The position numbers were made by a program, and so were the translations under genes. A DNA stretch of 64,000 nt, taken from positions 1,152 to 65,151 of the forward strand of contig URWD01000002.1 of NCBI GenBank assembly GCA_900551525.1, in the 5' to 3' direction. Under the pieces are notes generated by a model. That model was not told where the DNA came from, did no database searches, and saw only the letters and a program-made list of their open reading frames with translations. Below are positions 2,146-17,420 of this stretch, piece by piece. The first letter of the stretch is position 1, and each line of letters starts with the position of its first letter. The DNA comes from an uncultured Mycoplasmatota bacterium. Its GTDB lineage: Bacteria > Bacillota_I > Bacilli_A > RF39 > UBA660.

Positions 2146-2147
2146 AG

Positions 2148-2207: not shown

Positions 2208-2972
2208 ATGAATATAGAAATAAAAAAATATGACCAAGAAAATGCTAGTGTTTGTAATGATTTATTAACCAAACTAATAAATGATGAAACAAAATATGAT
2301 GAAAATTTAAAAATTAACATTATAATTAATGATTATTATAATAAATTAAATGAAAACTCAGTTATATATATAGCATTTATAAATAATAAAGTAGTAGGAT
2401 ATATATATGGATATGTAGCTGAAGATATTCTTGTTAAAGAAAAAACAGCTAAACTAGATGCATTATACGTTATAGAAGAATATCGTGGTAATAAAATTGC
2501 TAGTAAATTAATTGAAGAATATAAAAATTGGTGTTTTAGTAAAGAAGTAAAATACATCGAAGTAACAGCATGGAACGATAATATTGATGCTACTAAAATA
2601 TATTTAAAACAAGACTTTATACCAAAGAAAACAACCTATATTTATGGATGCCCAAAAAAACAATATCAAAAATTAGTAAGAGATAAAATACCTGAAAAAA
2701 TAAAAAATAATAATGAAGAACCAATAACTAGAATTCTAGATGAAAAAGAATTTAAAGAGGAATTAGAAAAGAAATTATATGAAGAATATATTGAAGTAAT
2801 AAGTGCTAAAGGTGAAGAAAAATTAGAAGAACTTGCAGATATGCTTGAAGTTATATCAGCCCTTGCAAATTCTGAAAATAAAACGTTAGATGACATTATA
2901 AACATTGCAAATAATAAAAAGAATAAACGTGGAGCATTTAATGATAAAATATTTTTAGAAGGCATAAAATGA
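2208..2972 (+). CDS. Fusion protein: N-terminal GNAT acetyltransferase plus C-terminal all-alpha MazG/PRA-PH-like NTP pyrophosphohydrolase
   Basis: The start is ATG 2208 (alternative GTG 2199). The N-half has a GNAT pattern (VVGYIYGYV, YVIEEYRGNKIASKLI). The C-half has KLVRDKIPEKI...EEYIEV...EELADMLEVISAL...KRGAFNDKIFL, typical of MazG-like house-cleaning pyrophosphatases. Confidence 0.6.
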   Translation: MNIEIKKYDQENASVCNDLLTKLINDETKYDENLKINIIINDYYNKLNENSVIYIAFINNKVVGYIYGYVAEDILVKEKTAKLDALYVIEEYRGNKIASKLIEEYKNWCFSKEVKYIEVTAWNDNIDATKIYLKQDFIPKKTTYIYGCPKKQYQKLVRDKIPEKIKNNNEEPITRILDEKEFKEELEKKLYEEYIEVISAKGEEKLEELADMLEVISALANSENKTLDDIINIANNKKNKRGAFNDKIFLEGIK

Positions 2973-4465
2973 GCAAATACAAAATAGATTATGAGATATT
3001 AACTTTAGAAAAACTTCAAAAAAGATTAGAAAAAATAATTTCCAATCCAGAAAATAAATTTAAAGTAACAAAATTAGAAAATATAGGATATACAACATGT
3101 GGATTTCCAATTGAACATTATTCTATAGGTAATGGCCCATTTCATGTTACTTATATGGGTGGAGCACATGGTAATGAAATAATAAGTGTAGATTTTGTTA
3201 CACAACTTATGCAAAATTTAGCACTTGGAAACAATTTTGATAATTTTGACCCAGAGATATTTACAATTGATTTTATACCAGTCCAAAATCCTGAAGGATT
3301 TGCAGTCACAACATATGCTTTAGATAGCGTCATGAAAAATATGACTGAAGAAGAGATTGAAAAATTTAGTAAAACGTATTGGACAGTATTTCGTGAAGAT
3401 GATCAAAATGTATTAAAAATAGATAAACTTCTTAAGACAATTAGTGAAGAATTTAACACTTTTGTTGATATTAATTCTTTTTGGATAAATTTTCAAAACA
3501 AAGTAATAACAAGAAATTCAGTATATGATTATTTAATTCAAGAATATCATTTTAATAACTCAAAATTATATTTAGTAATTTCAAATGTCTTAAAAGATAC
3601 ATTATTTATTGAAAGAAAACACACTAATTTCTTTAATAGTGTTACTCCAGAATGCATACCGGAAATTACAAAAGCTCATCAAACTTTAAAATCTAAGATA
3701 ATTAATATGTATCGAAATAATTTATTTCCAAATGGTTCTTTAGCAAATTTTTATTCAAATGCAAATGGTGTAAACTTAAATGATAATAATCCTATTTACT
3801 ACAAAATAATGAAAGAACAAATATCCAAATATGGGAAAACATTAGGTAACATGAGAGATAATCATATTACTAAAAGCATCAAAGGACCAATTGGTATGGC
3901 AAATTATGATATGAGTGAAGAATTTAGATTTGAACCAGAAAATACAGCATTACTTAACTATTTGCATAAATTAGAAAGTAAAGGGGAAAACATAGCTTTT
4001 TTCAACTGCCATGGAACAGGTGGTTTACTATACACATATCCAATATTTATTTATGATTACAACACCAAAGAAAATGAAATAAGAGATTTTACTTTCTATA
4101 TTAATAATAGAATAGCAACTGAATATACAAAAGCAATCGGAGAAATTTATCAAAAAGAAACTGGAAAATATGACACATATAAAATGATGGGACATCCAGA
4201 AAGAATAACAGGAGTGGGAGATCTACTTCGTCAAAAATATATTGCTTCGTTCATGTTAGAACTATCAAAAATGGGAGGTAATCCAATATCTCCATACGGA
4301 GATAAAAATGGTAATTTCTATTTAACTATGACTAGCAACTTTAATGCATTTAACAAAACTTTAGAAACAATATTAAGTATAAAGCATCTTTATAAGAGTA
4401 GTTATATAATGACTTATGATGAATTTGGAATGGTTCATTATGAAGAAAGTTCTAGGTCAAGATAA
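2969..4465 (+). CDS. M14-family zinc carboxypeptidase-like protein
   Basis: ATG 2969 overlaps the preceding TGA (ATGA). YMGGAHGNEIISVDF supplies the HxxE zinc site and FFNCHGTGG a distal His. Confidence 0.55.
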   Translation: MSKYKIDYEILTLEKLQKRLEKIISNPENKFKVTKLENIGYTTCGFPIEHYSIGNGPFHVTYMGGAHGNEIISVDFVTQLMQNLALGNNFDNFDPEIFTIDFIPVQNPEGFAVTTYALDSVMKNMTEEEIEKFSKTYWTVFREDDQNVLKIDKLLKTISEEFNTFVDINSFWINFQNKVITRNSVYDYLIQEYHFNNSKLYLVISNVLKDTLFIERKHTNFFNSVTPECIPEITKAHQTLKSKIINMYRNNLFPNGSLANFYSNANGVNLNDNNPIYYKIMKEQISKYGKTLGNMRDNHITKSIKGPIGMANYDMSEEFRFEPENTALLNYLHKLESKGENIAFFNCHGTGGLLYTYPIFIYDYNTKENEIRDFTFYINNRIATEYTKAIGEIYQKETGKYDTYKMMGHPERITGVGDLLRQKYIASFMLELSKMGGNPISPYGDKNGNFYLTMTSNFNAFNKTLETILSIKHLYKSSYIMTYDEFGMVHYEESSRSR

Positions 4466-4490
4466 GCTCGCACAACTTGCGAGTTTTAAT
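4465..4490 (+). terminator. Possible rho-independent terminator
   Basis: Stem AGCTCGCA (4465-4472) pairs with TGCGAGTT (4478-4485), followed by a short TTTT tract. Confidence 0.4.
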
Positions 4491-4508
4491 GTGCCCTAAA
4501 AAATAGCT

Positions 4509-4536
4509 TTACAACTTAAAAATAATTTGCTATAAT
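4509..4536 (+). promoter_or_regulatory. Sigma-A-type promoter candidate
   Basis: TTACAA (4509-4514), a 16-nt spacer, then TATAAT (4531-4536), about 27 nt upstream of ATG 4563. Confidence 0.4.
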
Positions 4537-4562
4537 TTATTCATAATAAAGGGCGTGATTAA

Positions 4563-5825
4563 ATGAAGATATCAAATGAAGTAAAAGCATTACTAGACAA
4601 ATTATATAATCTTCGTGGTGAAGATAGTGTAATACTAGCTAAAATGAATAAAGAAAGAGAAGAAGCTATTGAAACTGGTGAAAGAACTAAAAATGAAAAA
4701 GAAGTTCTACTTGAAAAAATAGCTAAATTAACTAAAGAAGAAGAAACCCTTCAAGAAGAAGGAAATAAACTAATATCTCTACTTAGTAATATAAATAGAG
4801 ATGATTTTGCTAATGTATTAGATCGTTTACAAATAGATTTTGATCCTGCATCAATAAATGAAAAAGTAAATAATATGCTACCATCAACAATTGAAAAGGT
4901 AGTAGCAGAAAATAAATTAGCTAGTGAAGAACTTGAAAATGTTGAAACAGAAATGAACAATGCTATAACAAAAGTTGAAGAATTAGGCATTAGAAAAGAT
5001 GAAGCATTAAGTAATCAAGCAAAGCTTAATGAATATTTTAATTTAGCTTTAGAAGGTAACATCAATATAACCAGAGATGCAATTACAAGTTTACTTGAAA
5101 AATTTGAATTTAATGAAGATGAACAAAGAGAAGCTGCAAAAATCCTAATGTTCCCAGAAGATGCACTTTATGAATATGATGGCATTTACAAAAGTAGAGA
5201 TAAAGCAAGTAGAAAAACAATAACTGATGTTTTGGTTGAAGCTAAAAAAGAATCTCGTGCTGAAAATAAGGAAGTAGTAAACGAAGTTAAAGAAACTGCT
5301 CCAGAAGTAGAAGCAAGTCTAGAAGCTCCATCAGCATTGGAAGATATTTTTGATAAAGTAATAACTGAAAATAACATCCCAGAAGTAGAAAAACAAAAAG
5401 AAGAAACACCAGTGTTAAGTGAAGAAACTTCTGAAATGGTAACTGAAGTAGTTAGTGAAAAAAATGAAAAAGAAAAATTAATTACATTATTAACATCTCT
5501 AGAAGTAAATGCTAATATATTAACAAATGAACAATTAGAAAAGATTCTTGCTAATTATGATGAAGAATTAATAAAAACAAATATTAGTGTATTAAAAGAA
5601 TACAAAATATCTCTTGATGTTATAAAAGAAAATCCAGAAATTCTTTATGACAAAGAATTAAAAGAAAAATTAGAAAAGTTAATAAATATTGGTAAAGAAG
5701 CTCGTGATATTAGTTTAATGCCAAGTATTTTAGTAAAATATGATTTAAAAGGTTTAAATAACACCATAAATGTATTACAAATAAGTGGATTAGATCCTAA
5801 AAAGGTTCCGTTAATGGCTTATTAG
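4563..5825 (+). CDS. Acidic coiled-coil protein with C-terminal mTERF-like helical repeats (hypothetical)
   Basis: A 420-aa ORF rich in E/K/L with a coiled-coil-like N-half. The C-terminus has about three ~30-aa repeats: ISVLKEYKISLDVIKENPEILY, KLEKLINIGKEARDISLMPSILV and TINVLQISGLDPKKVPLMA. Confidence 0.5.
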   Translation: MKISNEVKALLDKLYNLRGEDSVILAKMNKEREEAIETGERTKNEKEVLLEKIAKLTKEEETLQEEGNKLISLLSNINRDDFANVLDRLQIDFDPASINEKVNNMLPSTIEKVVAENKLASEELENVETEMNNAITKVEELGIRKDEALSNQAKLNEYFNLALEGNINITRDAITSLLEKFEFNEDEQREAAKILMFPEDALYEYDGIYKSRDKASRKTITDVLVEAKKESRAENKEVVNEVKETAPEVEASLEAPSALEDIFDKVITENNIPEVEKQKEETPVLSEETSEMVTEVVSEKNEKEKLITLLTSLEVNANILTNEQLEKILANYDEELIKTNISVLKEYKISLDVIKENPEILYDKELKEKLEKLINIGKEARDISLMPSILVKYDLKGLNNTINVLQISGLDPKKVPLMAY

Positions 5826-5838
5826 AAAGGAGTATATA

Positions 5839-6507
5839 ATGAAATCATTTGAAGAAGTAAAAAGTATATACGAAGAAGAAAAAGTTGGGTTTGACGTAAA
5901 TAAAGAACATCCTGAAAAGTTCTTATTATCATTAGAACTAGCAAATGATGGAAATAAAGAATTTCTAAAAAAATATGGTATAGAATTAAAACCAAGTGAA
6001 TGGATAGTTTTGACAATAGAACCTGAAATTCTAAAAAAAGCAGTATTAAGAGCTAAAGATTTAGGATTTCTAGAAGCTTATGTTCAATCACCATCATTTT
6101 TAAAACAAGATGTTGATAAAGTCATAAAAAGAATAGGTGAACTTGAACATTTAGGTATTCCATATAGAAGTGAAAAAGGAAAATATCAATCATTTCTATT
6201 TAGTGAAAGAGGATATAACTATGTTTTACAAAATAGTGGGAAAGAAGTTGATAAAACTCCCAGTGTGATTGATGCAGAATTAAAAGAACTAGCGGATAGA
6301 GTTATGGAAACTTTTGCTATGGAAGATAAAAAAAATGAAATATATGAAAATCTAGCGAAAATTGAAAAACAAGGTTTAGGAATTAGGGAATCATTAATAA
6401 AAGCATTTGAAGTATATAATGATAGTGGTAATTTAGACTATTTAATATCAAGCATAGATGAAATTCTAGAAGCAAATAAAGAAGAAGTAAAAGGGAGAGT
6501 AGCATGA
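5839..6507 (+). CDS. Hypothetical protein with mTERF-like helical repeats
   Basis: RBS AAAGGAG lies upstream. Repeats are EFLKKYGIELKPSEWIVLTIEPEIL, VLRAKDLGFLEAYVQSPSFL and VIKRIGELEHLGIPY. Confidence 0.5.
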   Translation: MKSFEEVKSIYEEEKVGFDVNKEHPEKFLLSLELANDGNKEFLKKYGIELKPSEWIVLTIEPEILKKAVLRAKDLGFLEAYVQSPSFLKQDVDKVIKRIGELEHLGIPYRSEKGKYQSFLFSERGYNYVLQNSGKEVDKTPSVIDAELKELADRVMETFAMEDKKNEIYENLAKIEKQGLGIRESLIKAFEVYNDSGNLDYLISSIDEILEANKEEVKGRVA

Positions 6508-6791
6508 GTTTTTTAAAAGAATATGGTTTTTTAGATAGTGATATTAGTGAGTATGAAAATAACACTCCAGAAAAGATGAAAAAAGTAATCGAAGAACATG
6601 AAAATCTAGTAAAGGTAAATTTAGAATATTTAAAAAACTTAGGTATTGAAACTTATAAAGAAATATTTATAAATTATCCAGATATGTTCTTAATGGATGC
6701 TAGTAATTTTGAAGAAAGTTTTTCTAAATATGATAAAGAAGAATTAATTACCAAACTAAATGCTAATTTCAAAATGGTAAAATATCTATAA
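6504..6791 (+). CDS. Small protein with mTERF-like repeats (hypothetical)
   Basis: ATG overlaps the upstream stop (ATGA). Repeats are FLKEYGFLDSDISEY and NLEYLKNLGIETYKEIFINYPDMFLMD. Confidence 0.5.
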   Translation: MSFLKEYGFLDSDISEYENNTPEKMKKVIEEHENLVKVNLEYLKNLGIETYKEIFINYPDMFLMDASNFEESFSKYDKEELITKLNANFKMVKYL

Positions 6792-6821
6792 AAAATAATC
6801 GCAAAAGCGATTATTTTTTTT
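6792..6821. terminator. Bidirectional terminator between convergent genes
   Basis: An 11-bp stem pairs AAAATAATCGC (6792-6802) with GCGATTATTTT (6807-6817), with loop AAAA. A T-run lies on the + strand and an A-run on the other side. Confidence 0.7.
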
Positions 6822-7620
6822 GTAAGCTATATAAATTTATTTCAGGTTTATTAAATAATCTAAATTCTATTTTAGGAGTACCAATACCACCAGAAATAAA
6901 TAATTTAGAATTATTTTCTTCATAACTACCATATTTATATTTTTTAGACCAATCTGTTGATATTATACCGCCATAAAAAGGTAAAACAACAAGACCATTT
7001 AGAGAATGTCCAGCAAGCATAACATCAATATCATCATTTTTCAAAGTTTCAAAGTAGTCTGGATAATGAGTAATAACTAAATTAAAAGTAGTATCTAAAT
7101 TATCATCAATACTTATAGCTTTACTAACATTATCCAAATTAGTTAAACCAGTTATTTTGATAGGGTTTACATCCTTATAAAAAATATAATTTGATTCATT
7201 ATCTAGTATTTTAAACTGAGCATCATTCATTATTTCACTATATTTATTTATCTCATCATTATCCCCGATAACAGCATATTTATACAAAGTACAATCCATA
7301 TTCTTTAATAATTCTTTTAATTTATTAATATCATCATTATTTAAATTATTATTCTTATATAATAAATCTCCGGTAAAAACTATAATATCTGGTTTTAAGT
7401 CATTTACCTTTGCAAAAATATTTTGAATTCTGTTTAAATCATTTTTGTCCTTTATTAAAAAGTCGGATAATTGAAGTATTTTAAAACCATCAAAAGAGTC
7501 AGAAAGATTTTGAACTTCTATATTTTTAGATACGATTTTAAAACCTTTTGGGTTAATAAAAAATCCGTATAAAACTAAACAAATTATAAAAATAAATATC
7601 ACTAAAAAAAATTTTTTCAT
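6811..7620 (-). CDS. Membrane-anchored calcineurin-like metallophosphoesterase homolog (YkuE-like) with substituted metal ligands
   Basis: It has an N-terminal TM and the YkuE-like layout: QLSDFL (usually DxH), FTGDLL, VIGDNDE (usually GNHD), ITHYPD and AGHSLNG (usually GHTHGG). Confidence 0.65.
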   Translation of the reverse strand: MKKFFLVIFIFIICLVLYGFFINPKGFKIVSKNIEVQNLSDSFDGFKILQLSDFLIKDKNDLNRIQNIFAKVNDLKPDIIVFTGDLLYKNNNLNNDDINKLKELLKNMDCTLYKYAVIGDNDEINKYSEIMNDAQFKILDNESNYIFYKDVNPIKITGLTNLDNVSKAISIDDNLDTTFNLVITHYPDYFETLKNDDIDVMLAGHSLNGLVVLPFYGGIISTDWSKKYKYGSYEENNSKLFISGGIGTPKIEFRLFNKPEINLYSLQKK

Positions 7621-7681
7621 TATTTACCCCGATTTCTACAATATAAATATATCATATTTATAAATTATTATCAATTTAGAA

Positions 7682-7710
7682 TTGAAAAAACTCAAATAAT
7701 ATGGTAAACT
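7682..7710 (+). promoter_or_regulatory. Sigma-A-type promoter with extended -10, upstream of the pilus-like operon
   Basis: TTGAAA (7682-7687), a 17-nt spacer, then TGgTAAACT (7702-7710). Confidence 0.5.
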
Positions 7711-7732
7711 AAATCATAGGTAGGTGGGCAAA

Positions 7733-8494
7733 ATGCATAGTTTTAAAAAATCTGCAATAATTGCTTTTTCATCACTATTTTTACTAACAAATGTAAACGC
7801 AGCTACATGTGGTTATGAAGAAAAAGCAAAGTTAAATAATGAAATAACAAATGTAAAGGCAAATTATGAAATTAAAGAAAGGGTAATGAATAAAGACGAA
7901 TATACAATTTCCGATGCTTTAATTGGAACTGAATACGAAGATACGTATGAAGCCACAACAGAATATATTCAAGTAAATATTTTGAATTTAACTGAAAATA
8001 TGTATGTTGAAGTAACAAATGATTATAACGATGATAAAGCTATATATCAATATAGTGACACAAAAAACGGGAACATATCATTTGATTGGCATGAAATTGA
8101 TGAACTGGTAACATATACTATTAAGGTTTATGCCTCAAGCGCTACAGGATGTGAAGGAACGATACTAAAAACATTGTATCAAGCTTTACCAAGGTATAAT
8201 GATTACTCAACATATGATATTTGTAAAAATATTCCTGATTCGTATTTATGTCAAAGGTATGTAACATATGAAAATATCGGTTTTGATGTTTTTACTGGTA
8301 GAATATATAAAGAAGTAGAAAAGAAAATTCAAAAAGAAGAAGAAACTAAAGAAAATGAAAAATGGTATAAAAAGGTTCAAAACTTTATTGTTAAACATAA
8401 AGTGCCATTTATCATCGGGGGAACAATATTGGTTGTCGCAGTTGGAAGTACAACATATATAATAATAAAGAAACGTAGGAGAAGTATAATATGA
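7733..8494 (+). CDS. Secreted protein with C-terminal TM anchor and 4 Cys; first gene of the operon (unknown function)
   Basis: The start is ATG 7733 (alternative GTG 7724), preceded by a G-rich RBS (GGTGGG). It has the signal peptide AIIAFSSLFLLTNVNA/ATC and the C-terminal anchor PFIIGGTILVVAVGSTTYIII followed by KKRRRS. There is no LPXTG motif. Confidence 0.6.
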   Translation: MHSFKKSAIIAFSSLFLLTNVNAATCGYEEKAKLNNEITNVKANYEIKERVMNKDEYTISDALIGTEYEDTYEATTEYIQVNILNLTENMYVEVTNDYNDDKAIYQYSDTKNGNISFDWHEIDELVTYTIKVYASSATGCEGTILKTLYQALPRYNDYSTYDICKNIPDSYLCQRYVTYENIGFDVFTGRIYKEVEKKIQKEEETKENEKWYKKVQNFIVKHKVPFIIGGTILVVAVGSTTYIIIKKRRRSII

Positions 8495-11400
8495 AAAAAA
8501 ATTTGAAAATATTAATAATTTTATTAACAATTTTTATTGGTTTTGCTAGCGCTGATGTTAAAGCTAGAACCATTGAAGAAAAAGAACAATTTACAAAACA
8601 AGCTAGTGGAAAACATAGTATCAGTGGTTTGAGCATTTTTGATGGTACTACATTTGGTATGTGGAAATATTCATTTGTTGATACTTCCAGTGAAAATTTT
8701 GTGGGATACTGTATGGACCCACATAAAGACGCATCTAATGGATATAAAGTCGATCGTATTCTCGGAGATACAGCGTATACAAAAAGAATAAATGCTTTTG
8801 ACCTAGGTGTCCTAGAAATTATTAAAAATGGTAAAAACCAATATAATGATAGTTTAACCTTTACAGTTGATGGCAGTTCAAAAACAATTAGTGGAGATTC
8901 ACTTTATGCTGCAACAAGTATAGCGGTACGTGCTTTTGCTTTAGGTGTCTTTGGATATGGCGGAGATGTTGAAAGTGCTAAATCAAGTCTAGTTCCATAT
9001 TATACAGGTGTTGCATCAGCACATATAACTAGGGGAATTCAATGGGCATCATACAACATAGATAAAATAAATACAATAACTGATACAAAATGTACAGGTT
9101 CTGTTGAAGATTTCAGAAAATGTTATGAAAAAACTTTTATTAAAGGATTTTTAAAGAATAATTGGTATAAAAATAGTTATAATTTCAAAATAAGCAGCAG
9201 TAGCTCTGAAGGCTATTTAGTAATGTATGCGGCTCAAAGTTTATTTATGAAAGGTTTTAACAGAGCATATGAAGTAATAACTGGTGATGTAACGACTGCT
9301 ACAGTTACAGCAACTGCCAACCCTTCAACAACAGATAAAACAACAACAGATAATACTATTGAAGAATATTATCATCAAACAATAGAGTTTGCTCAATTTG
9401 ATGCTCAAGATGGAAAAATAGATAATTTTACATTAACATGTCAAGACTGTGCAAAAAATAATATAACTTTAGGAAATCTTGAATTTTTTAATCCACAAAT
9501 AAATGATTGGCAAGTTGTTTCAAATATTAACGTTTTAACAGCATTTGATGCTGATGGTAAAACAAAAAGTGGAAAAATAGAATTGAGATTTAAAGTTACT
9601 AGGATAAAAGATGATGAAAATTGCAAATCAGTAAATTATAAAATATCATATAGATACGATGACCCAAGTTTAAAATACATCGGAGCATTATTGAAAACTA
9701 GTGATACAAGTAAACAAAGATTCTTTATTATTCAAAAAAATGATGGAAATTTAAAAAGTGAAATAACTGGAACGATAAAATGTTCAGCTTCTTGTGATAC
9801 AGAATTAGAATTACCAGTATGTAGCTATGAAGAAGATGATGCTGTTGCAAAAATCAATGGTCCAACCAAGATTAAAACTTGTATAATAGATAACCAAGAT
9901 GATGCAGGTAACACATATCAATTTACATCAGATGTAGGTGGAGTTGACAATTCTTACTGTAAAATCTATTGTAAAGAAGATTATGCAGAAATTAAATTAA
10001 ACCCAATAGTTAAAAATGTAAAATGTGGTGGATATTTCAAATTAACAAGTAAAATAAATGGTACAAAAACTTGTTATACAGGAAGTCCAAATACAACAGA
10101 AAACTCAACAAATGGTAAAAACAGTATAGATAAAGAAAAGTATTTACAAGATATAATTGCTGCTCAAAATAAAATGATTGAAGGCAGAGATTGGATATTA
10201 AAGGCTGAAGCGGCTTGGAAAACTATTCATGAACATACTGTTTCTTGTAGTTGTAATGGTTCTTATGATTATAATCACTCTCATGGTTCATATGCAGGAA
10301 TTGAAGCTGGAACTCCAACTGCAGAAGGATATGTACCAATAAAAAATGCCACACATAGCTACAGCATCGGCGGTGGCGGTGCATGCAATGTTGATTGGGA
10401 TGAATGTCCAAATGCTAACGGAAATGGTACTCATCGTTGTTGCGGAAGTGCAAATCCTACAGATGGAGATAGTTATAGTGATGTTTCTAACAAAATTCAA
10501 TCTCAATATTACAACCACGGAAAACAATTAATAGAAGAAGGTTTCAGAGCTTATGAAAAGGCTTTGAGAGATTACAATGCTTGTACAACAGCATGGACAA
10601 ACGAATTTGCTTTTGCTCAAGAAGTAAGATATTATTATGATGAAAATCGTGGAAAAGATAATACAAACTATGCTCCATACTTTGATTTATTAACTGGTAA
10701 AGATGAATTACAAAAATTAGAAAAATATGGAAATGAAAAAGTTGATACAAAAATTACAGTATGCACTGGGGCAACAAATGACAAGTATGAATGCTTAAAT
10801 AAAAATAATGAAAAAACATTTGACTTATCAATAGATAGCAACAGAAAAGTTGATTATAATTATAATTCATCATATGGAAATGTCTTTGCAACAAAACCAT
10901 ATACAACTTGTACAGTAAATGGTTGCGAAACAAAGAACCCATACGTTTCACAAGCAGCGTTTATAAAAAAAGAAGTAACAAAAGAACAAAAATACATTAC
11001 ACCAACAGCTTTCTATCAAATAGCTGCTAACGGAAAAGTAATAGCTTACGACAATTATTCAATTGATAAGGTTCAACTAGAACCATTAGTTAATAAATTA
11101 CCAATATCAACAAGTTCAGTTGGTGGTGGAGTATTCAAACTACTAGTTGAAAATCTTGGTGAATTCTATGATAAAAAAGATACTTATGGTAGATTAATTG
11201 ATTACAATGGAGTTAATGAAACTAAGAGTGTAGCTTATGCAGTAGGTGTAAACGCATTTGATGGCGAATATGTATGCTACTATGAAAATACATGTAGACC
11301 AAAAGATTGTCCTAACTGTGACTTTGTTTGTGAAGGTGATGGATGTGAATGGAAAGACTGTCCTTCATGCAACATATCATGTGTTAACTGTATATTCAAC

Positions 11401-11937
11401 TTAGACGATTTAAATATAATAGTTAAAACAATTACTACAACAGATGTAAATGCAGCAAATAGAACACATGGTTATAACTGGATTACATCAAGTAGTATGG
11501 AAGCATTACAATTATTAACTAAAAAAGCTTCAATGACAATTAGTGAAATTGAAGAAATAAATGAAATGATATATGATGATAAGACAACAGATGGATCAAC
11601 ACTTGGATTTAGTATTAAATTAACACCTGAAATAATAAATAAAATTACAGCATATAACAAAGACAATGAAGATAATGGTGGTTATATAAATAACTCATTA
11701 ACATGTTATGATGCCACAATTGATGGTGAAACATATAAAAACATTTATTGTTATAGCGAACTAATTGACAAGTTAGTTACTGAAAATGGTGATAATGTTA
11801 CAGTACTTCCGAGTAGAGTAAATGATGAAGCAAGACGTGCTAATGACACTGGAACTAGTGGTTATTGGACATTATGGTCAAATTATAGAATAGATAAAAC
11901 AAGTGAATCCGTAATCGGCGGACCATCTTGGAAATAA
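8491..11937 (+). CDS. 1148-aa secreted cysteine-rich protein (candidate filament-associated adhesin; function unknown)
   Basis: ATG overlaps the upstream TGA, and the RBS is AGGAGAAG. It has the signal peptide MKKNLKILIILLTIFIGFASADVKA and about 37 Cys by my count. Ten of those Cys fall within 39 residues (nt 11275-11391), including a tandem KDCPxCxxxC repeat. It has no TM and no LPXTG. Confidence 0.7.
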   Translation: MKKNLKILIILLTIFIGFASADVKARTIEEKEQFTKQASGKHSISGLSIFDGTTFGMWKYSFVDTSSENFVGYCMDPHKDASNGYKVDRILGDTAYTKRINAFDLGVLEIIKNGKNQYNDSLTFTVDGSSKTISGDSLYAATSIAVRAFALGVFGYGGDVESAKSSLVPYYTGVASAHITRGIQWASYNIDKINTITDTKCTGSVEDFRKCYEKTFIKGFLKNNWYKNSYNFKISSSSSEGYLVMYAAQSLFMKGFNRAYEVITGDVTTATVTATANPSTTDKTTTDNTIEEYYHQTIEFAQFDAQDGKIDNFTLTCQDCAKNNITLGNLEFFNPQINDWQVVSNINVLTAFDADGKTKSGKIELRFKVTRIKDDENCKSVNYKISYRYDDPSLKYIGALLKTSDTSKQRFFIIQKNDGNLKSEITGTIKCSASCDTELELPVCSYEEDDAVAKINGPTKIKTCIIDNQDDAGNTYQFTSDVGGVDNSYCKIYCKEDYAEIKLNPIVKNVKCGGYFKLTSKINGTKTCYTGSPNTTENSTNGKNSIDKEKYLQDIIAAQNKMIEGRDWILKAEAAWKTIHEHTVSCSCNGSYDYNHSHGSYAGIEAGTPTAEGYVPIKNATHSYSIGGGGACNVDWDECPNANGNGTHRCCGSANPTDGDSYSDVSNKIQSQYYNHGKQLIEEGFRAYEKALRDYNACTTAWTNEFAFAQEVRYYYDENRGKDNTNYAPYFDLLTGKDELQKLEKYGNEKVDTKITVCTGATNDKYECLNKNNEKTFDLSIDSNRKVDYNYNSSYGNVFATKPYTTCTVNGCETKNPYVSQAAFIKKEVTKEQKYITPTAFYQIAANGKVIAYDNYSIDKVQLEPLVNKLPISTSSVGGGVFKLLVENLGEFYDKKDTYGRLIDYNGVNETKSVAYAVGVNAFDGEYVCYYENTCRPKDCPNCDFVCEGDGCEWKDCPSCNISCVNCIFNLDDLNIIVKTITTTDVNAANRTHGYNWITSSSMEALQLLTKKASMTISEIEEINEMIYDDKTTDGSTLGFSIKLTPEIINKITAYNKDNEDNGGYINNSLTCYDATIDGETYKNIYCYSELIDKLVTENGDNVTVLPSRVNDEARRANDTGTSGYWTLWSNYRIDKTSESVIGGPSWK

Positions 11938-11948
11938 GGGGTGACTAA

Positions 11949-12362
11949 ATGAAGAATGCATTCTGGGCATACTGGTTGATACTATTAGGTATAGTAATCG
12001 TAGTAATAATGCTACTTGTTCAAAATCTTACAACAAGTAGCACTCAAGATTACTATCTAATTAAAGAAATAACTGAAGCATCTATGATTGATGCAGTAGA
12101 TTATTCTTATTATAGAACCTATGGTGAAGTAAAAATAAACAAAGAAAAATTTTATGAAAGTTTTATACGTCGTTTTTCAGAAAATGCCGCATTAAACACA
12201 ACTTACACAGTAAGCTTTTATGGAGTTTATGAAGCTCCCCCAAAAGCTAGTGTAGAAATTAAAAGTAAATCTAATACATTCAATGTTGTAGGTGATTCAA
12301 CTACATTTGATATGGTAGAAAGAATAGATGCAATACTTGAAGGTAATACACTTGATGAATAA
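11949..12362 (+). CDS. N-terminally anchored small protein, possibly pseudopilin-like
   Basis: RBS GGGGTG precedes the start. FWAYWLILLGIVIVVIMLLV is a TM, followed by a ~100-aa extracytoplasmic domain. Confidence 0.45.
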   Translation: MKNAFWAYWLILLGIVIVVIMLLVQNLTTSSTQDYYLIKEITEASMIDAVDYSYYRTYGEVKINKEKFYESFIRRFSENAALNTTYTVSFYGVYEAPPKASVEIKSKSNTFNVVGDSTTFDMVERIDAILEGNTLDE

Positions 12363-12379
12363 CATAAGGAGGAATAAAA

Positions 12380-13150
12380 ATGGGTGGTAAGAAAAATGTA
12401 TTTACAAAGTTTTTAACAAATAAAACAACAGTTACGTTAGTAGGTATTGTTCTAGGACTAGGAGTTTTAGTGGGATTTTACATATATCGTGTTAATAAAC
12501 AAGTAAATCCCACCCGTATTCCTGTTGCTAAAAGAGCTATAAGTGCTACTGAAGAAATAACAAAAGATGACATCGAATATGTCAAAGTTAGTAAAAGTTT
12601 CTTAAAAAAAAGAGATGTTTATCAATCAGTAACAAATTTAGTTGGTAAATATGTTTCAACTGGAACATCTATTCCTAAGGGAGGAATGTTCTATACAGCT
12701 CAAGTTGTTGAAAAAAAGGAATTACCAAATGCTATATTTGATGAAATACCTGAAGGATATACAATCTATCAATTAAAAGTAGATAATAATACAACATATG
12801 CTAATTCAATATATCCTGGTGATAAAATAGATTTATGGCTTAAAACAACTGAAAATGGTATTTTAGTTTTTGGTGAATTTATATCAAATATTGAGGTCTT
12901 AGCAGTTCGTGATAATGCTGGTCAAAATGTTTTTGATGTTACAAGTGGAAGAACTCCAGCATGGTTATTATTTGCTGTAAAGACTGATTTATATCGTTAT
13001 TTAAAACTAGCTGAAAGCATATCTGGGATGACTATTATTCCGGTTCCAAAAAATAATTTGGCAAATCCAGATGTTGGGTCAACTGAATATACAAGTCAAG
13101 AACTTATAGATATTCTAGATAGACAAACTCTTAGAATGGAGGCCCAATAA
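12380..13150 (+). CDS. cpaB: Flp pilus assembly protein CpaB-like (SAF domain), paralog 1
   Basis: RBS AAGGAGG precedes the start. It has an N-terminal TM, the SAF-like segment IPVAKRAISATEEITKDDIEYVKV, and a C-terminal beta-rich RcpC/CpaB-like part. Confidence 0.6.
   Translation: MGGKKNVFTKFLTNKTTVTLVGIVLGLGVLVGFYIYRVNKQVNPTRIPVAKRAISATEEITKDDIEYVKVSKSFLKKRDVYQSVTNLVGKYVSTGTSIPKGGMFYTAQVVEKKELPNAIFDEIPEGYTIYQLKVDNNTTYANSIYPGDKIDLWLKTTENGILVFGEFISNIEVLAVRDNAGQNVFDVTSGRTPAWLLFAVKTDLYRYLKLAESISGMTIIPVPKNNLANPDVGSTEYTSQELIDILDRQTLRMEAQ
12792..12846. repeat. 55-nt patch nearly identical (54/55) to 13562-13616
   Basis: CAACATATGCTAAtTCAATATATCCTGGTGATAAAATAGATTTATGGCTTAAAAC, with a single t/c difference at 12805/13575. 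The flanking paralog sequence is clearly diverged. Confidence 0.9.
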
Positions 13151-13959
13151 TGAATAATATCTTAGCAAAAATTAAAAATTTATTTCTTAATAGAAATACT
13201 GTTACAATATTGGGCGTTATAGCTGGTGTTATAGCATTATGGTTTGCTTATAGTATAACTTTAGACAAAGCTGTAAAACCTCAAAAAGTGCCAGTTGCAG
13301 CCAAAGATTTAACTGCAGGAACAATTATAACAAAAGAAGATATTGAATATGTTGAAGTAAATTCTGATGTATTAAAAAAGGCAAGTGTAGTAACTAGTTC
13401 TTCACAACTTATTGGTTATTATGTAACAAATAATACATCAGTAGTTCGTGGTTCAATGTTTTACAAAAGTCAAGTTGTAACAAAAGATAAATTAATTGAA
13501 AGAGATTTGGAAACAGTCCCAGAAGGTTATAGACTTTACTGGCTAAAAGTAGACAATGCTTCAACATATGCTAACTCAATATATCCTGGTGATAAAATAG
13601 ATTTATGGCTTAAAACTAAGAATGAAGGCAAATATGTATACGAAGAATTTATAACAAATATTGAAGTTCTTAGTGTTAAAGATTCAAAAGGACAAAATGT
13701 TTTTGATGTATCAAGCGGAAGAACTCCAGCAGTACTTGTATTTGCAGTAACAGATGAAATGTTCTCATATTTAAGTAAAATAGGTTATTTAAGTGGTATG
13801 GATTTATATCCAGTTCCAATTAATAAAAAGAATTCAGATAAAGATGCTACTACAGAAATAACAAATGATGCTTTAAGAACATTAATCGATAGCCAAGCTA
13901 GAAATGTTACACCAGATACAAATGAATCAAATAATGATAATAATACAAATAATGAATAA
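13150..13959 (+). CDS. cpaB: Flp pilus assembly protein CpaB-like (SAF domain), paralog 2
   Basis: The start overlaps the upstream stop (TAATG). The architecture matches 12380-13150: VPVAAKDLTAGTIITKEDIEYVEV, and it shares the block YANSIYPGDKIDLWLKT. Confidence 0.6.
   Translation: MNNILAKIKNLFLNRNTVTILGVIAGVIALWFAYSITLDKAVKPQKVPVAAKDLTAGTIITKEDIEYVEVNSDVLKKASVVTSSSQLIGYYVTNNTSVVRGSMFYKSQVVTKDKLIERDLETVPEGYRLYWLKVDNASTYANSIYPGDKIDLWLKTKNEGKYVYEEFITNIEVLSVKDSKGQNVFDVSSGRTPAVLVFAVTDEMFSYLSKIGYLSGMDLYPVPINKKNSDKDATTEITNDALRTLIDSQARNVTPDTNESNNDNNTNNE
13562..13616. repeat. Second copy of the 55-nt conserved patch (see 12792-12846)
   Basis: Direct comparison of the two stretches gives an offset of exactly 770 nt. 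Confidence 0.9.
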
Positions 13960-13965
13960 AAGAGG

Positions 13966-15072
13966 GTGTTACTAGTGAATGATGCTGTATTTTCACAAAT
14001 AGATTTTGGACCTTTAAAAGAGTTTTTAGAAGAAGATAACATAACTGACGTATCATATTCTAATGGTGGTCAAGTTTGGCTAAAAACTCTTGATAAAGGT
14101 ATATATAGGGTTGAAAGACCAGAAATAAATAATGCTTTAATGGAAAAGCTAGCTTTTCAATGTTCAAATGTTATGGGTAAAACATTTAATATGGCCCATC
14201 CATTTTTGGATGCTGAATCTGCAGAACTTCGTTTAAACTTTGTTCATGAATCTATAGCCACAAATGGTATTTGTTGCGTTATAAGAAAGACGCCTGCCAA
14301 AATCCGTCTAAACAAAGATAAACTGATAAATGAAAAATATGTAACAGAGGATTTACATGACTTTTTAATGACTTGTGTTGAAGGACACTGTAATATTATT
14401 GTAAGTGGGGAAACTGGATCAGGTAAAACAGAACTTGTTAAATACTTAGCCGCTCATACAAAAGAAAATGAAAAAATAATAACAATTGAAGATACTCTAG
14501 AACTTCACTTAGATAAAATATTTCCACATCGTGATATTGTTGCTATGAAAACAAATAATATTGCATCTTACTCAGATGTACTAGTAACATGTATGCGACA
14601 AAACCCAAGATGGATTTTACTATCCGAAGTTCGTTCAGCAGAAGCAGTTACAGCAGTACGTAACTCAATATCATCTGGACACAACATTATATCAACAATT
14701 CACTCAGATAGAGCTTTAAACATACCAATGCGTTTATATAGTTTGCTAGAAAACAGTCAAGATATAGACCAATTCTTAAAGTCAATTCACAGATATGTTC
14801 AAATTGGTGTTCATGTTAAAGGTTACATGAGTAAAGAATTAGGTAGATTCCAACGTGAAATAATCGAAGTCGTAGAATTTTATGTTGATGAAAATAACGA
14901 AGCAAAATCCAATATTATCTTTAAAAAAAGTTTAGATGGCAAGTTCAGTTTTAATAACCCAAGTAAATATTTAATTGACTATTTAGGTGTTCAAGGTGTA
15001 ACATTAAAACCAGATTATTTTGTCAAATCAAAAAATGACACAAATTCAGAAGCTGAAATAGAAAGCTTATAA
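13966..15072 (+). CDS. cpaF: CpaF/TadA-type (VirB11-like) type II/IV secretion ATPase
   Basis: It has Walker A VSGETGSGKTE, Walker B / Asp box RWILLSEVR and His box SGHNIISTIHS, at ~365 aa. The start is GTG 13966 or in-frame GTG 13975; the RBS AAGAGGG at 13960-13966 overlaps GTG 13966, so it favours 13975. Confidence 0.85.
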   Translation: MLLVNDAVFSQIDFGPLKEFLEEDNITDVSYSNGGQVWLKTLDKGIYRVERPEINNALMEKLAFQCSNVMGKTFNMAHPFLDAESAELRLNFVHESIATNGICCVIRKTPAKIRLNKDKLINEKYVTEDLHDFLMTCVEGHCNIIVSGETGSGKTELVKYLAAHTKENEKIITIEDTLELHLDKIFPHRDIVAMKTNNIASYSDVLVTCMRQNPRWILLSEVRSAEAVTAVRNSISSGHNIISTIHSDRALNIPMRLYSLLENSQDIDQFLKSIHRYVQIGVHVKGYMSKELGRFQREIIEVVEFYVDENNEAKSNIIFKKSLDGKFSFNNPSKYLIDYLGVQGVTLKPDYFVKSKNDTNSEAEIESL

Positions 15073-15090
15073 CAGAAAGGAGCGTTTAAT

Positions 15091-16014
15091 ATGTTTACAG
15101 TTAATTTAACAAGTTATTTACCAGAATTGTTAATACTATTAGCAATTGCTACAGTGGTTTTAATAGCTCGTCGAAATCCTGGTGAAAACGTATATAAATA
15201 TGTAACAAATAAAGCAACTGATATGTATGATAAATACGCTCCATACTCATTTAAAATGGTAAGAGAAAAAGCAGTTGAATTAGGACAAGAATATACTCCA
15301 AGACAATATTTAACACAAGTTATAATTCTTGGTGGTATAGCAGCTTTAGTAGGATATTTTTACTTTTATAGTATTGTCATTGCTGTAATATATGCAATTG
15401 TAGCCATAGCATTTATACCATATCTTGCTTATTTAAGACTACAAAGAGTGTATAGTGAATATATATTTGAACAAATACAAACATATACAACAAATGTTAT
15501 AATGGAATTTAATACAACTCAAAGTTTTGTTAAAGCTCTTGAAGGTGTTAGAGATTCAGGGATTCTTGAAGAACCAGTTGTTAGTGATGTCAAAAAGATG
15601 ATTGAAATGTCATATCAAAATGGTACCATAGATGAATCAATAACTTATTTTAATAGCAAATACCCATTTTACATGGTAAAAAATATGCATCAATTATTCC
15701 TACAAATAACCAAAGAAGGTGCCAGAGATTCAGGACAAGCATTAGAAAATATGTCACTTGATATTGATGCCTTAGTAGAAGGTGTATATCGTGACCAAAT
15801 GGACAGAAATAATTTCCATGGCAGATTCCTAAGATTCGGTTTAATTTTATATTTACTCGTTATAGTTTTAAGATTCATGTTAGGTGAAGACAATTATATT
15901 AAATTACTAGATATATGGTATGTACAAATTATTTTACATGCTATTGTCATTATAAATGCTTTCTTTATGTTAAGTGGAGAAAAATACTATAATGAAGATG
16001 TAGGAGGAGAATAA
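15091..16014 (+). CDS. tadB: TadB-like platform protein (T2SS-F family)
   Basis: RBS AAAGGAG precedes the start. It is polytopic, with an N-terminal TM, a central TM pair and a C-terminal TM pair. The cytoplasmic helical domain is TTNVIMEFNTTQSFVKALEGV..., and the gene sits directly after the ATPase. Confidence 0.6.
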   Translation: MFTVNLTSYLPELLILLAIATVVLIARRNPGENVYKYVTNKATDMYDKYAPYSFKMVREKAVELGQEYTPRQYLTQVIILGGIAALVGYFYFYSIVIAVIYAIVAIAFIPYLAYLRLQRVYSEYIFEQIQTYTTNVIMEFNTTQSFVKALEGVRDSGILEEPVVSDVKKMIEMSYQNGTIDESITYFNSKYPFYMVKNMHQLFLQITKEGARDSGQALENMSLDIDALVEGVYRDQMDRNNFHGRFLRFGLILYLLVIVLRFMLGEDNYIKLLDIWYVQIILHAIVIINAFFMLSGEKYYNEDVGGE

Positions 16015-16802
16015 TGCAAATAGAAGTTATTATTGTCGCTGTAATCGTATTTGGTATAATGACTATAACTGGTCAAATAAGTATTAATCAGCTTATAAGT
16101 GATAATCAAATGCTTTTTATGAAGTTAAAAGAAAAAGATTGGGATTTTCTAGTCAGAGCCAAGTATGGAAATAATGTTAATCCAGACATTCTCTTTAATA
16201 AAAGAATAAAAAATGCTCTAATTACTATGGCTATAGCATTTGCCTTTTTAATCAAAGATTTAAATGCTGTTAAAGTATTATTAATATTTGTTCTAGGAGT
16301 GTTTATCTTTAAAACATCTTATAATGATATAAAAAAATATTATCAACGACATATGTCTGAAATAGACTCGATGTTACCACATTATTTAAAAAACCTAGAA
16401 ATATTAATTCAACATTATACTGTACCAGTTGCTATTGGTAAATCAATGGCTGAATCACCAGAAATATTTAAAGATGGATTACAAGAAATGATTGACTCTA
16501 TAAATTCTGGGGATGATACGATCGAACCATATATGGAATTTGCTAGAAAGTATCCAGTACGTGATTCAATGCGTATGATGCGTTTATTATATCGTCTAAG
16601 TTTAGGACGTCAAGAAAGAAAACAAGAACAAATACTAACATTTTCAAGATCAATATCTTCACTTCAACAAAAAGCTCGTGAAACAAGATACAAAAATAGA
16701 CTAGAAAAAATGGAAGGCAAAACCATGAGTATGCTTATAACAACTGGGGTAGGATTAATGATATTACTAGTTTTAGCTGTTATACAACTTATGGACATAT
16801 AA
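16014..16802 (+). CDS. tadC: TadC-like platform protein (T2SS-F family)
   Basis: TAATG overlap with the upstream gene. It has LPHYLKNLEILIQHYTVPVAIGKSMAESPEIFKDGLQEMIDSINSGDDTIEPYMEFARKYP and a C-terminal TM, typical of GspF/TadC domains. Confidence 0.65.
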   Translation: MQIEVIIVAVIVFGIMTITGQISINQLISDNQMLFMKLKEKDWDFLVRAKYGNNVNPDILFNKRIKNALITMAIAFAFLIKDLNAVKVLLIFVLGVFIFKTSYNDIKKYYQRHMSEIDSMLPHYLKNLEILIQHYTVPVAIGKSMAESPEIFKDGLQEMIDSINSGDDTIEPYMEFARKYPVRDSMRMMRLLYRLSLGRQERKQEQILTFSRSISSLQQKARETRYKNRLEKMEGKTMSMLITTGVGLMILLVLAVIQLMDI

Positions 16803-16826
16803 ATTTACAAAAAGTTTAAAATATAA

Positions 16827-16855
16827 TTGATATTTTAAGGAAATTAAGTTATAAT
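16827..16855 (+). promoter_or_regulatory. Internal sigma-A-type promoter in front of the pilin genes
   Basis: TTGATA (16827-16832), a 17-nt spacer, then TATAAT (16850-16855). A strong RBS GGAGG (16871-16875) follows. Confidence 0.55.
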
Positions 16856-16882
16856 AAAAATATATTAAAAGGAGGATAACAA

Positions 16883-17128
16883 ATGAAAGAAGCTACTGGA
16901 GAATTAAATATGACTGTAGTTACTGTAGTTGCAATTGCTGCTGTTGGTGCTTTCTTCTATTTCTTTATCTGGCCTGGTATTCAAGCTGGACTTTCAAGAA
17001 ATACTTGCCTAAATCTATGTCCAGGCGGAGAATTGGACACAGCCCAAGGACGTGGTGGTGTAGATGTTAATAACAGAACTTGTTTTTGTGCAGATGGAAC
17101 ACAAATAGATTTTGGCGACGAAGAATAA
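16883..17128 (+). CDS. Small Flp-sized pilin candidate 1 (81 aa, 4 Cys in the head)
   Basis: The layout is a short polar leader MKEATGELNMT, a ~22-aa hydrophobic helix VVTVVAIAAVGAFFYFFIWPGI, and a small Cys-containing C-terminal part. It sits in a Tad-like operon. Confidence 0.5.
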   Translation: MKEATGELNMTVVTVVAIAAVGAFFYFFIWPGIQAGLSRNTCLNLCPGGELDTAQGRGGVDVNNRTCFCADGTQIDFGDEE

Positions 17129-17150
17129 GACAAAACATAAGAGGTGAAAA

Positions 17151-17411
17151 ATGAAAGAGGCTACAGGAGAATTAAATATGACGATAATAGTTTCTATATC
17201 GATCGGTATCTTGGCAGCCTTTTTTTTCGGCTTTTTATGGCCAATGATTAATGGAAATTTTCAAAAAAATTCACAATGTAGCAAAGCTATATGTGATTGT
17301 AGTACTGAAGTAAGAAATACAATAGAAAACGAAACTGGTCAAAAAAATCATTGTTTATGCAGAAATAGTGCAACAGATGAAAACACTTTTTATTGCCCAT
17401 TCAAAGGTTAG
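17151..17411 (+). CDS. Small Flp-sized pilin candidate 2 (86 aa, 6 Cys in the head)
   Basis: RBS AGAGGTGA precedes the start. The leader MKEATGELNMT is identical to pilin 1 at the protein level and nearly so at the DNA level. A hydrophobic helix follows, then a divergent Cys-rich head. Confidence 0.5.
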   Translation: MKEATGELNMTIIVSISIGILAAFFFGFLWPMINGNFQKNSQCSKAICDCSTEVRNTIENETGQKNHCLCRNSATDENTFYCPFKG

Positions 17412-17420
17412 GAGGAAATT

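Follow-up and report, generated by a model that had tools for sequence, protein, structure and literature searches.

A cysteine-rich secreted giant is encoded in a Tad-like operon

We analyzed a 64,000-nucleotide (nt) stretch of DNA, hereafter the window, from contig URWD01000002.1 of an uncultured Mycoplasmatota bacterium (assembly GCA_900551525.1). Our subject is a giant protein encoded by the second gene of an operon for a Tad-like system, which belongs with the type IV filaments. A preliminary description of the window had portrayed this protein as 1148 residues long, with a signal peptide, about 37 cysteines and no transmembrane (TM) segment, LPXTG motif or lipobox, and our hydrophobicity and motif scans agree. 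The open reading frame (ORF) starts with ATG about 12 nt downstream of an AGGAG sequence. Its signal peptide leads from KK through a hydrophobic core to ASA at residues 19-21 and V-K-A at 23-25, and A25 is nearly invariant across the protein family described below. Residues 1-19 are the sole hydrophobic segment, and a search of all 1148 residues for an LPXTG-like motif and a lipobox found neither.

The cysteine count is exactly 37, or 3.2% of the residues, compared with a mean of 1.05% for the long ORFs of the window. Ten of these cysteines are packed into residues 929-967 (nt 11275-11391), the block that had been singled out earlier. Both copies of its KDCPxCxxxC repeat are where they had been placed: KDCPNCDFVC at residues 938-947 (nt 11302-11331) and KDCPSCNISC at residues 955-964 (nt 11353-11382). 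These checks establish the ORF, the signal peptide and the number of cysteines. The parts of the protein are as follows.

8491-11937, + strand: giant ORF, 1148 residues, Sec signal peptide, 37 Cys
8566-9780, + strand: residues 26-430, head resembling a Class II thioester domain (AlphaFold2, Foldseek, Pfam TED)
8710-8712, + strand: codon of Cys74, predicted thioester Cys in Y-C-[IM]-D-P (invariance, motif match)
9715-9717, + strand: codon of Gln409, predicted thioester Gln in K-Q-R-F-F (on the hairpin after the sandwich)
9781-10125, + strand: residues 431-545, Cys-rich beta module with YCK[IV][FY]CKEDY; Cys 431, 435, 444, 464, 490, 494, 512 and 528
10126-10590, + strand: residues 546-700, helical hairpin (548-581, 662-700) with a Gly/Cys-containing loop, 583-661 (AlphaFold2 model)
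10591-11265, + strand: residues 701-925, beta-rich module; Cys pairs 758/768, 807/812 (model, co-loss)
11275-11391, + strand: residues 929-967, 10-Cys knot; two half-repeats after C929 and C935
11392-11934, + strand: residues 968-1148, C-terminal module with Cys 1072/1087, ending in G-P-S-W-K-COOH (nt 11920-11934)

The N-terminal head resembles Class II thioester domains

In thioester domains (TEDs), the bond-forming cysteine lies on strand C in a [YFL]C-phi-zeta motif, and in Class II TEDs the bond-forming glutamine lies on the hairpin that returns after a beta-sandwich insert (PMC6194298). The predicted head of the giant follows this plan. An AlphaFold2 model of the full-length giant, built on a 65-sequence alignment, has a mean predicted local distance difference test score (pLDDT) of 74; it is good over most of residues 30-850 except loop 583-661 and poor over residues 950-1148. 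Residues 26-432 modeled alone reach a pLDDT of 92.3 and a predicted template-modeling score of 0.87. In the model, a beta-barrel and helical lobe come first (residues 26-270), then a beta-sandwich insert (271-395) and the hairpin that leads back (396-430).

A Foldseek search of the Protein Data Bank (PDB) with the full model returned 6fwy, the Class II TED of Enterococcus faecium TIE86 (E 6e-6, probability 1.0), and all other PDB matches had E values above 0.01. The domain model again gave 6fwy as its single significant match (E 4e-6, probability 1.0), collinear over about 420 columns, which is the whole domain. Among the weaker PDB matches, the archaeal fusexin 7p4l (E 0.045) is ruled out by its probability of 0.18 and a template-modeling (TM) score of at most 0.15. 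At the sequence level, the Pfam TED family (PF08341) was the commonest weak match in 22 heads of the family, appearing in four of them with a best E of 3.5e-5. For comparison, the experimentally studied Bacillus subtilis adhesin TIEpLS20 reaches just E 7.7e-5 on the same model. The second thioester model, TED_2 (PF20610), did not match the window protein.

Both residues of the predicted bond are in place. Y73-C74-M75-D76 meets the Class II cysteine motif [YFL]C-phi-zeta (PMC6194298), and Cys74 closes the third beta-strand of the model. Cys74 and Asp76 are invariant in 65 of 65 homologues, and Tyr73 is kept in 64. In a wider alignment of 146 sequences (the window protein and 145 representatives at 50% identity), Cys74 could be aligned in 127 and is substituted in none of them. 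Gln409 is the sole invariant glutamine of the head. It stands about 21 residues ahead of the domain end with the sandwich before it; in TIE86, the bond-forming glutamine is Gln292 and the construct ends at residue 314 (PMC6194298). Its context fits phi-Q-zeta-phi-phi in part, the preceding residue being a lysine rather than a hydrophobic one. Cys74 and Gln409 are jointly present in 115 of the 146 sequences and both unaligned in 12.

A profile comparison with hhalign aligned the family to TIEpLS20, used as a single sequence or a 3-sequence profile, over the cysteine motif and the next helix only (E 0.003-0.006). The homologue search with the TIEpLS20 head gave three proteins, too few for a strong profile. 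The similarity of the head to thioester domains exists at the level of the fold and, weakly, at the level of sequence.

The cysteine count itself points the same way. Since 37 is odd, one cysteine must be unpaired, and Cys74 is the natural candidate: seven cysteine pairs co-vary across the family, whereas Cys74 never varies.

Most other cysteines probably form local pairs

The preliminary description had proposed that cysteines be aligned across orthologs, and this turned out to be informative. An alignment of 65 homologues (40-93% identity) has 24 invariant cysteines, among them the full set of 10 in the knot. Cysteines that do vary across the family are lost in pairs. The exception is the second of the clusters reported earlier (residues 586-651), which is poorly kept; Cys 586, 639 and 651 fall in the hypervariable loop 583-661, where pLDDT is below 50, and are not conserved. 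The pairs lost together are 201/211, 317/320, 758/768, 807/812, 947/952, 964/967 and 1072/1087. In 263 sequences, their co-loss phi coefficients range from 0.44 to 1.0, and neither 1072 nor 1087 occurs without the other. This joint loss of close neighbors supports the prediction of local disulfides at most sites.

The knot deserves separate treatment. Its half-repeat reads C-P-x-C-x3-C-x(2-4)-C, and its cysteines are lost as 940/943, 947/952, 957/960 and 964/967. The CPxCx3C core noted earlier is conserved across the family; the leading K-D is not, and the unit of the wider family is [DE]-C-P-x-C-x3-C. Knots range from 5 cysteines (C + CPxC + CPxC) to 13. In the minimal form, the 947/952 and 964/967 pairs, each lost jointly, are both missing, which leaves C929 and the knuckles C940-P-N-C943 and C957-P-S-C960, set 14 residues apart in a part of the model that has low confidence. 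Two CPxC knuckles with this spacing are the classic layout of Cys4 zinc-ribbon or rubredoxin-type sites. As judged from its sequence, the minimal knot would fit a Cys4 metal site and disulfides equally well. No histidine or aspartate was seen in place of a knot cysteine, and a knot-profile search of PDB sequences, which include solved zinc domains, gave no match.

The preliminary description had remarked on the lack of a Dsb or Bdb gene nearby. Our scans bear this out: no Dsb, Bdb, VKOR or thioredoxin-fold protein was found among the scanned ORFs, which for Pfam were those up to 60.6 kb except the four small operon proteins at 17151, 17932, 19390 and 19797. Gene 1 of the operon and the four pilin-like proteins have even numbers of cysteines in their predicted extracytoplasmic parts. 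One further cysteine of the 150-residue pilin-like protein sits in its hydrophobic segment, and the membrane proteins of the operon have none.

Two small paralogous proteins close the operon (19390-19740 and 19797-20135, + strand), each with a Lys/Arg-rich loop; their tails are CINCITDPYNNC and CAACVSNPTGDKC. Their CxxC...C tails are inferred to face outwards. These proteins could be thiol-oxidoreductases or VirB2-like subunits.

Beyond the head, the protein has no known fold and a conserved end

Past residue 430, searches of Pfam, PDB sequences, and PDB and viral structures (the latter two with Foldseek) matched no known family or fold; the full-model search of the PDB gave weak matches to Ig-like adhesins or pilins at most. 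The giant therefore carries some 700 residues without a known fold, and it is unusually dense in cysteine for a protein that a Firmicute exports.

The C-terminus is GP[SA][WY][KR]-COOH in 245 of the 259 family members longer than 900 residues. That the last residues are kept at about 25% overall identity suggests a role in docking or sorting, and they form a candidate new C-terminal docking signal. To our knowledge, signals of this form have not been described.

The giant founds a large family without annotation

In a word-indexed search, 110 full-length homologues turned up at 38-99% identity, together with one partial match at 24%. None has a name or a Pfam domain, and cluster look-ups returned no name for any giant homologue. 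An exhaustive profile search extended the family to at least 470 clusters at 50% identity (E <= 0.001), 316 of them at E <= 1e-30. When the full giant and six distant members were scanned with Pfam and NCBIfam, no family threshold was reached. Searches of PDB sequences with the full giant (phmmer or profile) gave no meaningful match, and its full model found nothing among viral structures with Foldseek. The relatives come from low-GC gut Firmicutes that are uncultured; all of those found are metagenome-assembled genomes (MAGs) or metagenome contigs, among them MAGs from the human gut (Hadza) and with a RUG label. The giant founds a large family that is so far without name or annotation.

Conservation is distributed unevenly along the protein. 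Distant representatives match the window protein at a median identity of 21-23% in the TED head, sandwich and hairpin, 13% in the hypervariable loop, 42% in the Cys-rich beta module, 45% in the knot and 42% in the C-terminal module. Of the folded parts, the thioester-type head is thus conserved least, and conservation is highest in the C-terminal half. A fast-evolving, presumably distal head on a conserved proximal part is the pattern of an adhesin.

The operon and its order are conserved

The giant gene is the second of a 15-gene run on the + strand (7724-20135) in which neighboring genes are spaced by -4 to 80 nt. The gene upstream of the operon lies on the opposite strand, and a terminator-like hairpin follows at 20158-20189. 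Besides the giant, the operon contains the following genes.

7724-8494, + strand: gene 1, 256 residues; signal peptide, 4 Cys, TM helix at residues 221-240, KKRRRSII tail
11949-12362, + strand: DUF5411 protein, 137 residues, N-terminal TM helix (PF17424, E 3.5e-58)
12380-13959, + strand: two CpaB/RcpC-like proteins, 256 and 269 residues (PF16976, SAF and TIGR03177, partly below cut-off)
13966-15072, + strand: TadA/VirB11-class secretion ATPase, 368 residues (PF00437, E 7.6e-29)
15091-16802, + strand: two polytopic membrane proteins, 307 and 262 residues, 4-5 hydrophobic segments each; TadB/TadC by position only
16883-18384, + strand: four proteins inferred to be pilin-like, 81, 86, 165 and 150 residues
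18386-20135, + strand: 329-residue soluble protein at the TadZ/CpaE position, then the operon-closing paralogues of 116 and 112 residues (by position)

The stop codon of gene 1 overlaps the start of the giant gene by 4 nt (ATGA). One CpaB/RcpC-like copy scores 31.6 bits on PF16976, above the cut-off, and the other matches weakly. The 81- and 86-residue pilin-like proteins begin MKEATG/ELNMT and have 4 and 6 cysteines, and the 165- and 150-residue proteins have an N-terminal hydrophobic segment. The 116- and 112-residue paralogues each have two hydrophobic segments and the CxxC...C tail described above. The Tad label is partly secured: the ATPase and CpaB assignments are supported, and the pilin and platform assignments come from size, hydrophobic N-termini and gene order.

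Three side observations concern these genes. Among NCBIfam models, the VirB11 model fits the ATPase slightly best, the "TadA family conjugal transfer-associated ATPase" model about equally and the pilus ATPase models less well, with all of these matches far below the model cut-offs. The MKEATG/ELNMT leaders do not fit the G/xxxxEY pattern of Flp pilins. Ahead of the first pilin-like gene, an 80-nt gap (16803-16882) holds the best + strand promoter-like site, TTGATA-17-TATAAT (16827-16855).

We compared the window with related loci, namely L003 (45% identity), L005 (39%), L009 (38%), and L010 and L012 (about 26% each). The order anchor, giant, DUF5411, CpaB, ATPase, two membrane proteins and pilin-like genes is identical in L003, L010 and L012, and L005 and L009 keep it as far as the end of the contig. 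A DUF5411 gene directly follows the giant gene in L009, L010 and L012 as well, and genes sized like the closing paralogues occupy the same position in L003, L010 and L012. The 4-nt overlap between gene 1 and the giant gene is kept in all five loci. In every locus long enough to judge, the giant is gene 2 of a Tad-like operon, so that its operon context is constant within this set, and its earlier placement as the second gene of a pilus operon holds down to about 26% identity. The preliminary description would have given up its adhesin inference had the orthologs been unlinked to Tad-like genes or the cysteines not conserved; the orthologs are linked, and the cysteines are conserved.

One further locus, L008, bears two cassettes in tandem (763-9672), of 223 + 1370 residues and then 243 + 1095 residues, with highly diverged giants. 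Each of the two giant paralogues is preceded by a gene-1 homologue (29-37% identity). The overlap between gene 1 and the giant gene recurs in L008, where it is 1 nt long in one of the two cassettes. This arrangement looks like an expansion of adhesin paralogues. In the distant loci, the gap before the pilin-like genes has received other genes: a Bro-N gene in L010 (17580-18410) and a PDDEXK_2 transposase-like gene in L012 (11729-12589).

The source organism has a G+C content of about 27%, and the window carries the chromosomal markers UvrA, Lgt, GltX, CysS, NusA, IF-2, acetate kinase and RNase J. It also encodes a PBP5-like carboxypeptidase and UppS; by its gene content, the source organism makes peptidoglycan. 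A SpoIVA gene at 58838-60334 (+ strand) indicates that it probably forms spores. A wall-less, Mollicutes-like host is ruled out by the carboxypeptidase, UppS, Lgt and SpoIVA. We also rejected a mobile element or conjugation system, given the chromosomal housekeeping context, the conserved synteny and the lack of a relaxase, VirB4 or coupling protein among the scanned ORFs.

The giant is best read as a covalent adhesin

Given the fold, the motifs and the operon, our best reading is that the giant is probably a covalent adhesin, displayed on the pilus or beside it. Several results weigh against parts of this reading. The TM-scores to 6fwy are low (0.28-0.36, with a root-mean-square deviation of about 11 Å), and 6fwy is the only TED entry among the 50 Foldseek matches listed. 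On Pfam TED, the window head scores 15.4 bits (residues 72-146, E 0.026), where the cut-off is 22, and a head-profile search of PDB sequences gave no meaningful match. In about 12 of the 146 sequences, the cysteine is present but another residue aligns in the place of the glutamine, which may be misalignment. The accessory motif TQxx-phi-W is degenerate, reading T142-S-I-A145-V-R147, with its position and spacing kept. For the pilus machinery, Pfam and NCBIfam scans of the polytopic proteins and of the two scanned pilin-like proteins gave no family match, including Flp (PF04964) and T2SSF, and no prepilin peptidase (Peptidase_A24/TadV) was found in the scanned ORFs of window positions 1-60334.

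The accessory motif bears on a more specific concern. T142, A145 and R147 are invariant, and relative to TQxx-phi-W the glutamine has become serine and the tryptophan arginine. We considered whether S143 marks a lost thioester glutamine and hence a dead domain. TQxx-phi-W lies on helix alpha2 and is accessory, its glutamine and tryptophan not being essential for bond formation, and the bond-forming glutamine follows the sandwich (PMC6194298); the dead-domain explanation is thereby ruled out. Weighing these points, we regard homology of the head to TEDs as very likely. A functional thioester between Cys74 and Gln409 is, on the strength of the model and the alignments, probable with appreciable doubt.

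We also lean, with somewhat more reserve, toward the view that the giant serves a Tad-like, type IV filament system as its adhesin, in a low-GC, spore-forming gut Firmicute. The preliminary description had offered adhesin or cargo as alternatives on the basis of gene position. The Class II thioester-like N-terminal 400 residues support the first and are a stronger argument than position was. Cargo is unlikely, as the giant brings a Sec signal of its own and, in a Gram-positive cell with a wall, there is no outer membrane to cross. Absent from that earlier reading were the thioester-type head, the argument from an odd number of cysteines, the GPSWK end and the partnership with gene 1.

The favored reading implies the following sequence of events. 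Gene 1 and the giant would be co-translated, as their overlap suggests. Both carry signal peptides, and Sec would export both, with the gene-1 protein staying in the membrane. Outside the cell, residues 26-430 would fold as a Class II TED, and the Cys74-Gln409 thioester would form autocatalytically. The other 36 cysteines would stabilize a cross-linked or metallated stalk, mostly through local disulfides, with the knot perhaps serving as a Cys4 metal site, and the rest of the protein would stand in for the usual CnaB/isopeptide stalk and LPXTG anchor. The conserved C-terminal half and the GPSWK end would then dock the giant, the least certain step. The docking partner may be a complex of minor pilins, made up of DUF5411 with the 165- and 150-residue proteins, which would place the giant at the filament tip in the manner of PilY1. 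It may instead be the co-translated, membrane-anchored gene-1 product. Finally, a target amine would attack the thioester and leave the cell covalently attached, as expected from known TED chemistry (PMC6194298).

The more specific form of this reading is that the tip of a Tad-like pilus of Gram-positive gut bacteria bears a TED "harpoon" with a new architecture, recruited through GP[SA]W[KR]-COOH and the CPxC metal or disulfide knot without sortase or LPXTG. We put it forward tentatively, as a possibility that is more doubtful than the adhesin function itself. If true, it would be the first link of thioester adhesins to type IV filaments, and the C-terminal end would be a new signal for sorting or docking in Firmicutes. 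Covalent attachment through a pilus system would, if true, explain how little-known gut commensals attach.

The docking step is also where the strongest rival diverges. The giant could be a surface adhesin that sits off the filament, held by the type I membrane protein of gene 1, with the Tad-like genes merely co-regulated. Gene 1 has the required signal peptide and C-terminal TM anchor and overlaps the giant gene in all loci, the two are duplicated as a unit in L008, and the signal of the giant is of the Sec rather than the pilin type. Yet the cassette never occurs apart from Tad-like genes in the loci that can be judged, down to about 26% identity, with the exception of the extra copy in L008. 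Conservation is moreover highest in the C-terminal modules and at the very C-terminus, though docking on gene 1 would account for this equally well. On balance, we think an off-filament position rather unlikely.

Two further explanations fare worse. The giant might be a structural or assembly part, such as a wall-spanning collar or filament primer, whose thioester bonds amines of the cell's own peptidoglycan as a sortase-independent anchor. It has no LPXTG or other known anchor, its host makes peptidoglycan (PBP5-like carboxypeptidase, UppS), and its gene occurs once per operon examined (twice in L008), all of which would suit such a part; but a head at 21% identity, a hypervariable loop and a tandem paralogue fit diversifying target recognition better, and we consider a structural role improbable. 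Less probable still is a head that is merely TED-like, with Cys74 structural or catalytic and the giant a Cys-rich secreted enzyme, toxin or cargo: the low TM-scores, the single TED structure matched, the sub-threshold Pfam score of the window protein and the degenerate TQxx-phi-W would allow it, but the fold search, the Pfam matches of family members and both bond motifs (in order, spacing and invariance) agree independently, and no other family or fold scores better.

Comparison with known adhesins and pilus systems

Known TED adhesins belong to sortase-anchored surface proteins, to sortase pili or, in one case, to a conjugation operon, and a Tad-like machine would be a new setting for them. 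The closest match of the head is to the Class II adhesins built of thioester, isopeptide and ester domains (TIEs), namely EfmTIE86, BaTIE and SaTIE (PMC6194298). Like them, the giant has its N-terminal domain straight after the Sec signal, with a head lobe, an inserted beta-sandwich, a return hairpin, a third-strand cysteine motif and a late Q-zeta-phi-phi glutamine. Unlike them, it has no CnaB isopeptide/ester stalk and no LPXTG in a Pfam scan and motif search, and for this reason it fails the whole-protein TIE definition. Its helical lobe and sandwich are also larger, with 335 residues between cysteine and glutamine rather than about 200, and T-S-x-A-phi-R replaces TQxx-phi-W. Its stalk is Cys-rich and without a fold match, and its gene stands in a Tad-like operon.

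The context has its nearest parallel in TIEpLS20 (p34), a Class II TED adhesin of the B. subtilis plasmid pLS20 that is needed for conjugation (PMC8092201). There, too, a TED adhesin gene lies inside the operon of an envelope machine driven by a secretion ATPase rather than in a sortase locus, and there, too, no surface anchor is known (PMC8092201). The bond motifs are alike, VYC(68)IDPDK and SSYQ(256)RLM in TIEpLS20 and GYCMDPHK and SKQRFFI in the giant. TIEpLS20 differs in having 778 residues, CnaB-like domains, a single cysteine and a plasmid type IV secretion operon, whereas the giant is chromosomal and belongs to a Tad-like operon, with no relaxase or VirB4 in the window ORFs scanned.

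As a concept, a thioester warhead on the end of a pilus is familiar from Cpa, the tip adhesin of the Streptococcus pyogenes sortase pilus, as far as it is portrayed where PMC6194298 cites it. Cpa is by that account a sortase-polymerized pilin with Class I TEDs; the pilus of the giant is instead a relative of type IV filaments, and its tip location is our proposal. Tad/type IV-like operons with a CpaF ATPase, PilC and a DUF5411 protein have been predicted, by computation only, in the gut Firmicutes Roseburia, Ruminococcus and Eubacterium (Clostridia) (PMC9523054). They resemble the present operon in type, in host group and in the DUF5411-ATPase pairing, and differ in that an internalin-like protein, and no Cys-rich thioester-type giant, is described there. 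In a full-text literature search, no paper was found to connect thioester domains with Tad pili, and four, namely three reviews or perspectives and an unrelated PilV study, bring up thioesters together with type IV pili and tip adhesins.

PilY1 and PilC are non-pilin tip proteins of type IV pili. The giant shares with them a length of about 1100 residues, a Sec rather than a pilin signal, a gene beside pilin-like genes, and a variable N-terminal part joined to a conserved C-terminal part that is proposed to dock on minor pilins. Unlike PilY1, it matches no propeller or von Willebrand factor A domain in Pfam or in the fold search, in which the C-terminal 200 residues were poorly modeled, and the analogy is functional only.

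Neighboring genes

Divergently upstream of the operon, the window encodes a calcineurin-like metallophosphoesterase (6811-7620, - strand), as do L009, L010 (in the region 7710-9188) and L012 (in the region 2130-3660); in L003 and L005, an ORF of similar size occupies the place upstream of the operon. Between the metallophosphoesterase gene and gene 1, L010 and L012 have a gene for an Rce1-like CPBP intramembrane protease, and the window has none. It is conceivable that this protease is tied to pilin or adhesin processing.

Farther upstream, three genes at 4563-6791 (+ strand) encode proteins of 420, 222 and 95 residues with no Pfam match. ORFs of similar size precede the operon in the same order in L003, L005 and L009, the relatives at 38-45% identity, and the three genes may be conserved neighbors or part of the system. 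Elsewhere, the window contains a PDDEXK_2 transposase-like gene (26929-27891, + strand), a MazF/PemK-type toxin gene (29876-30241, + strand) and a gene for a protein with a Listeria-Bacteroides repeat domain (320-1765, + strand).

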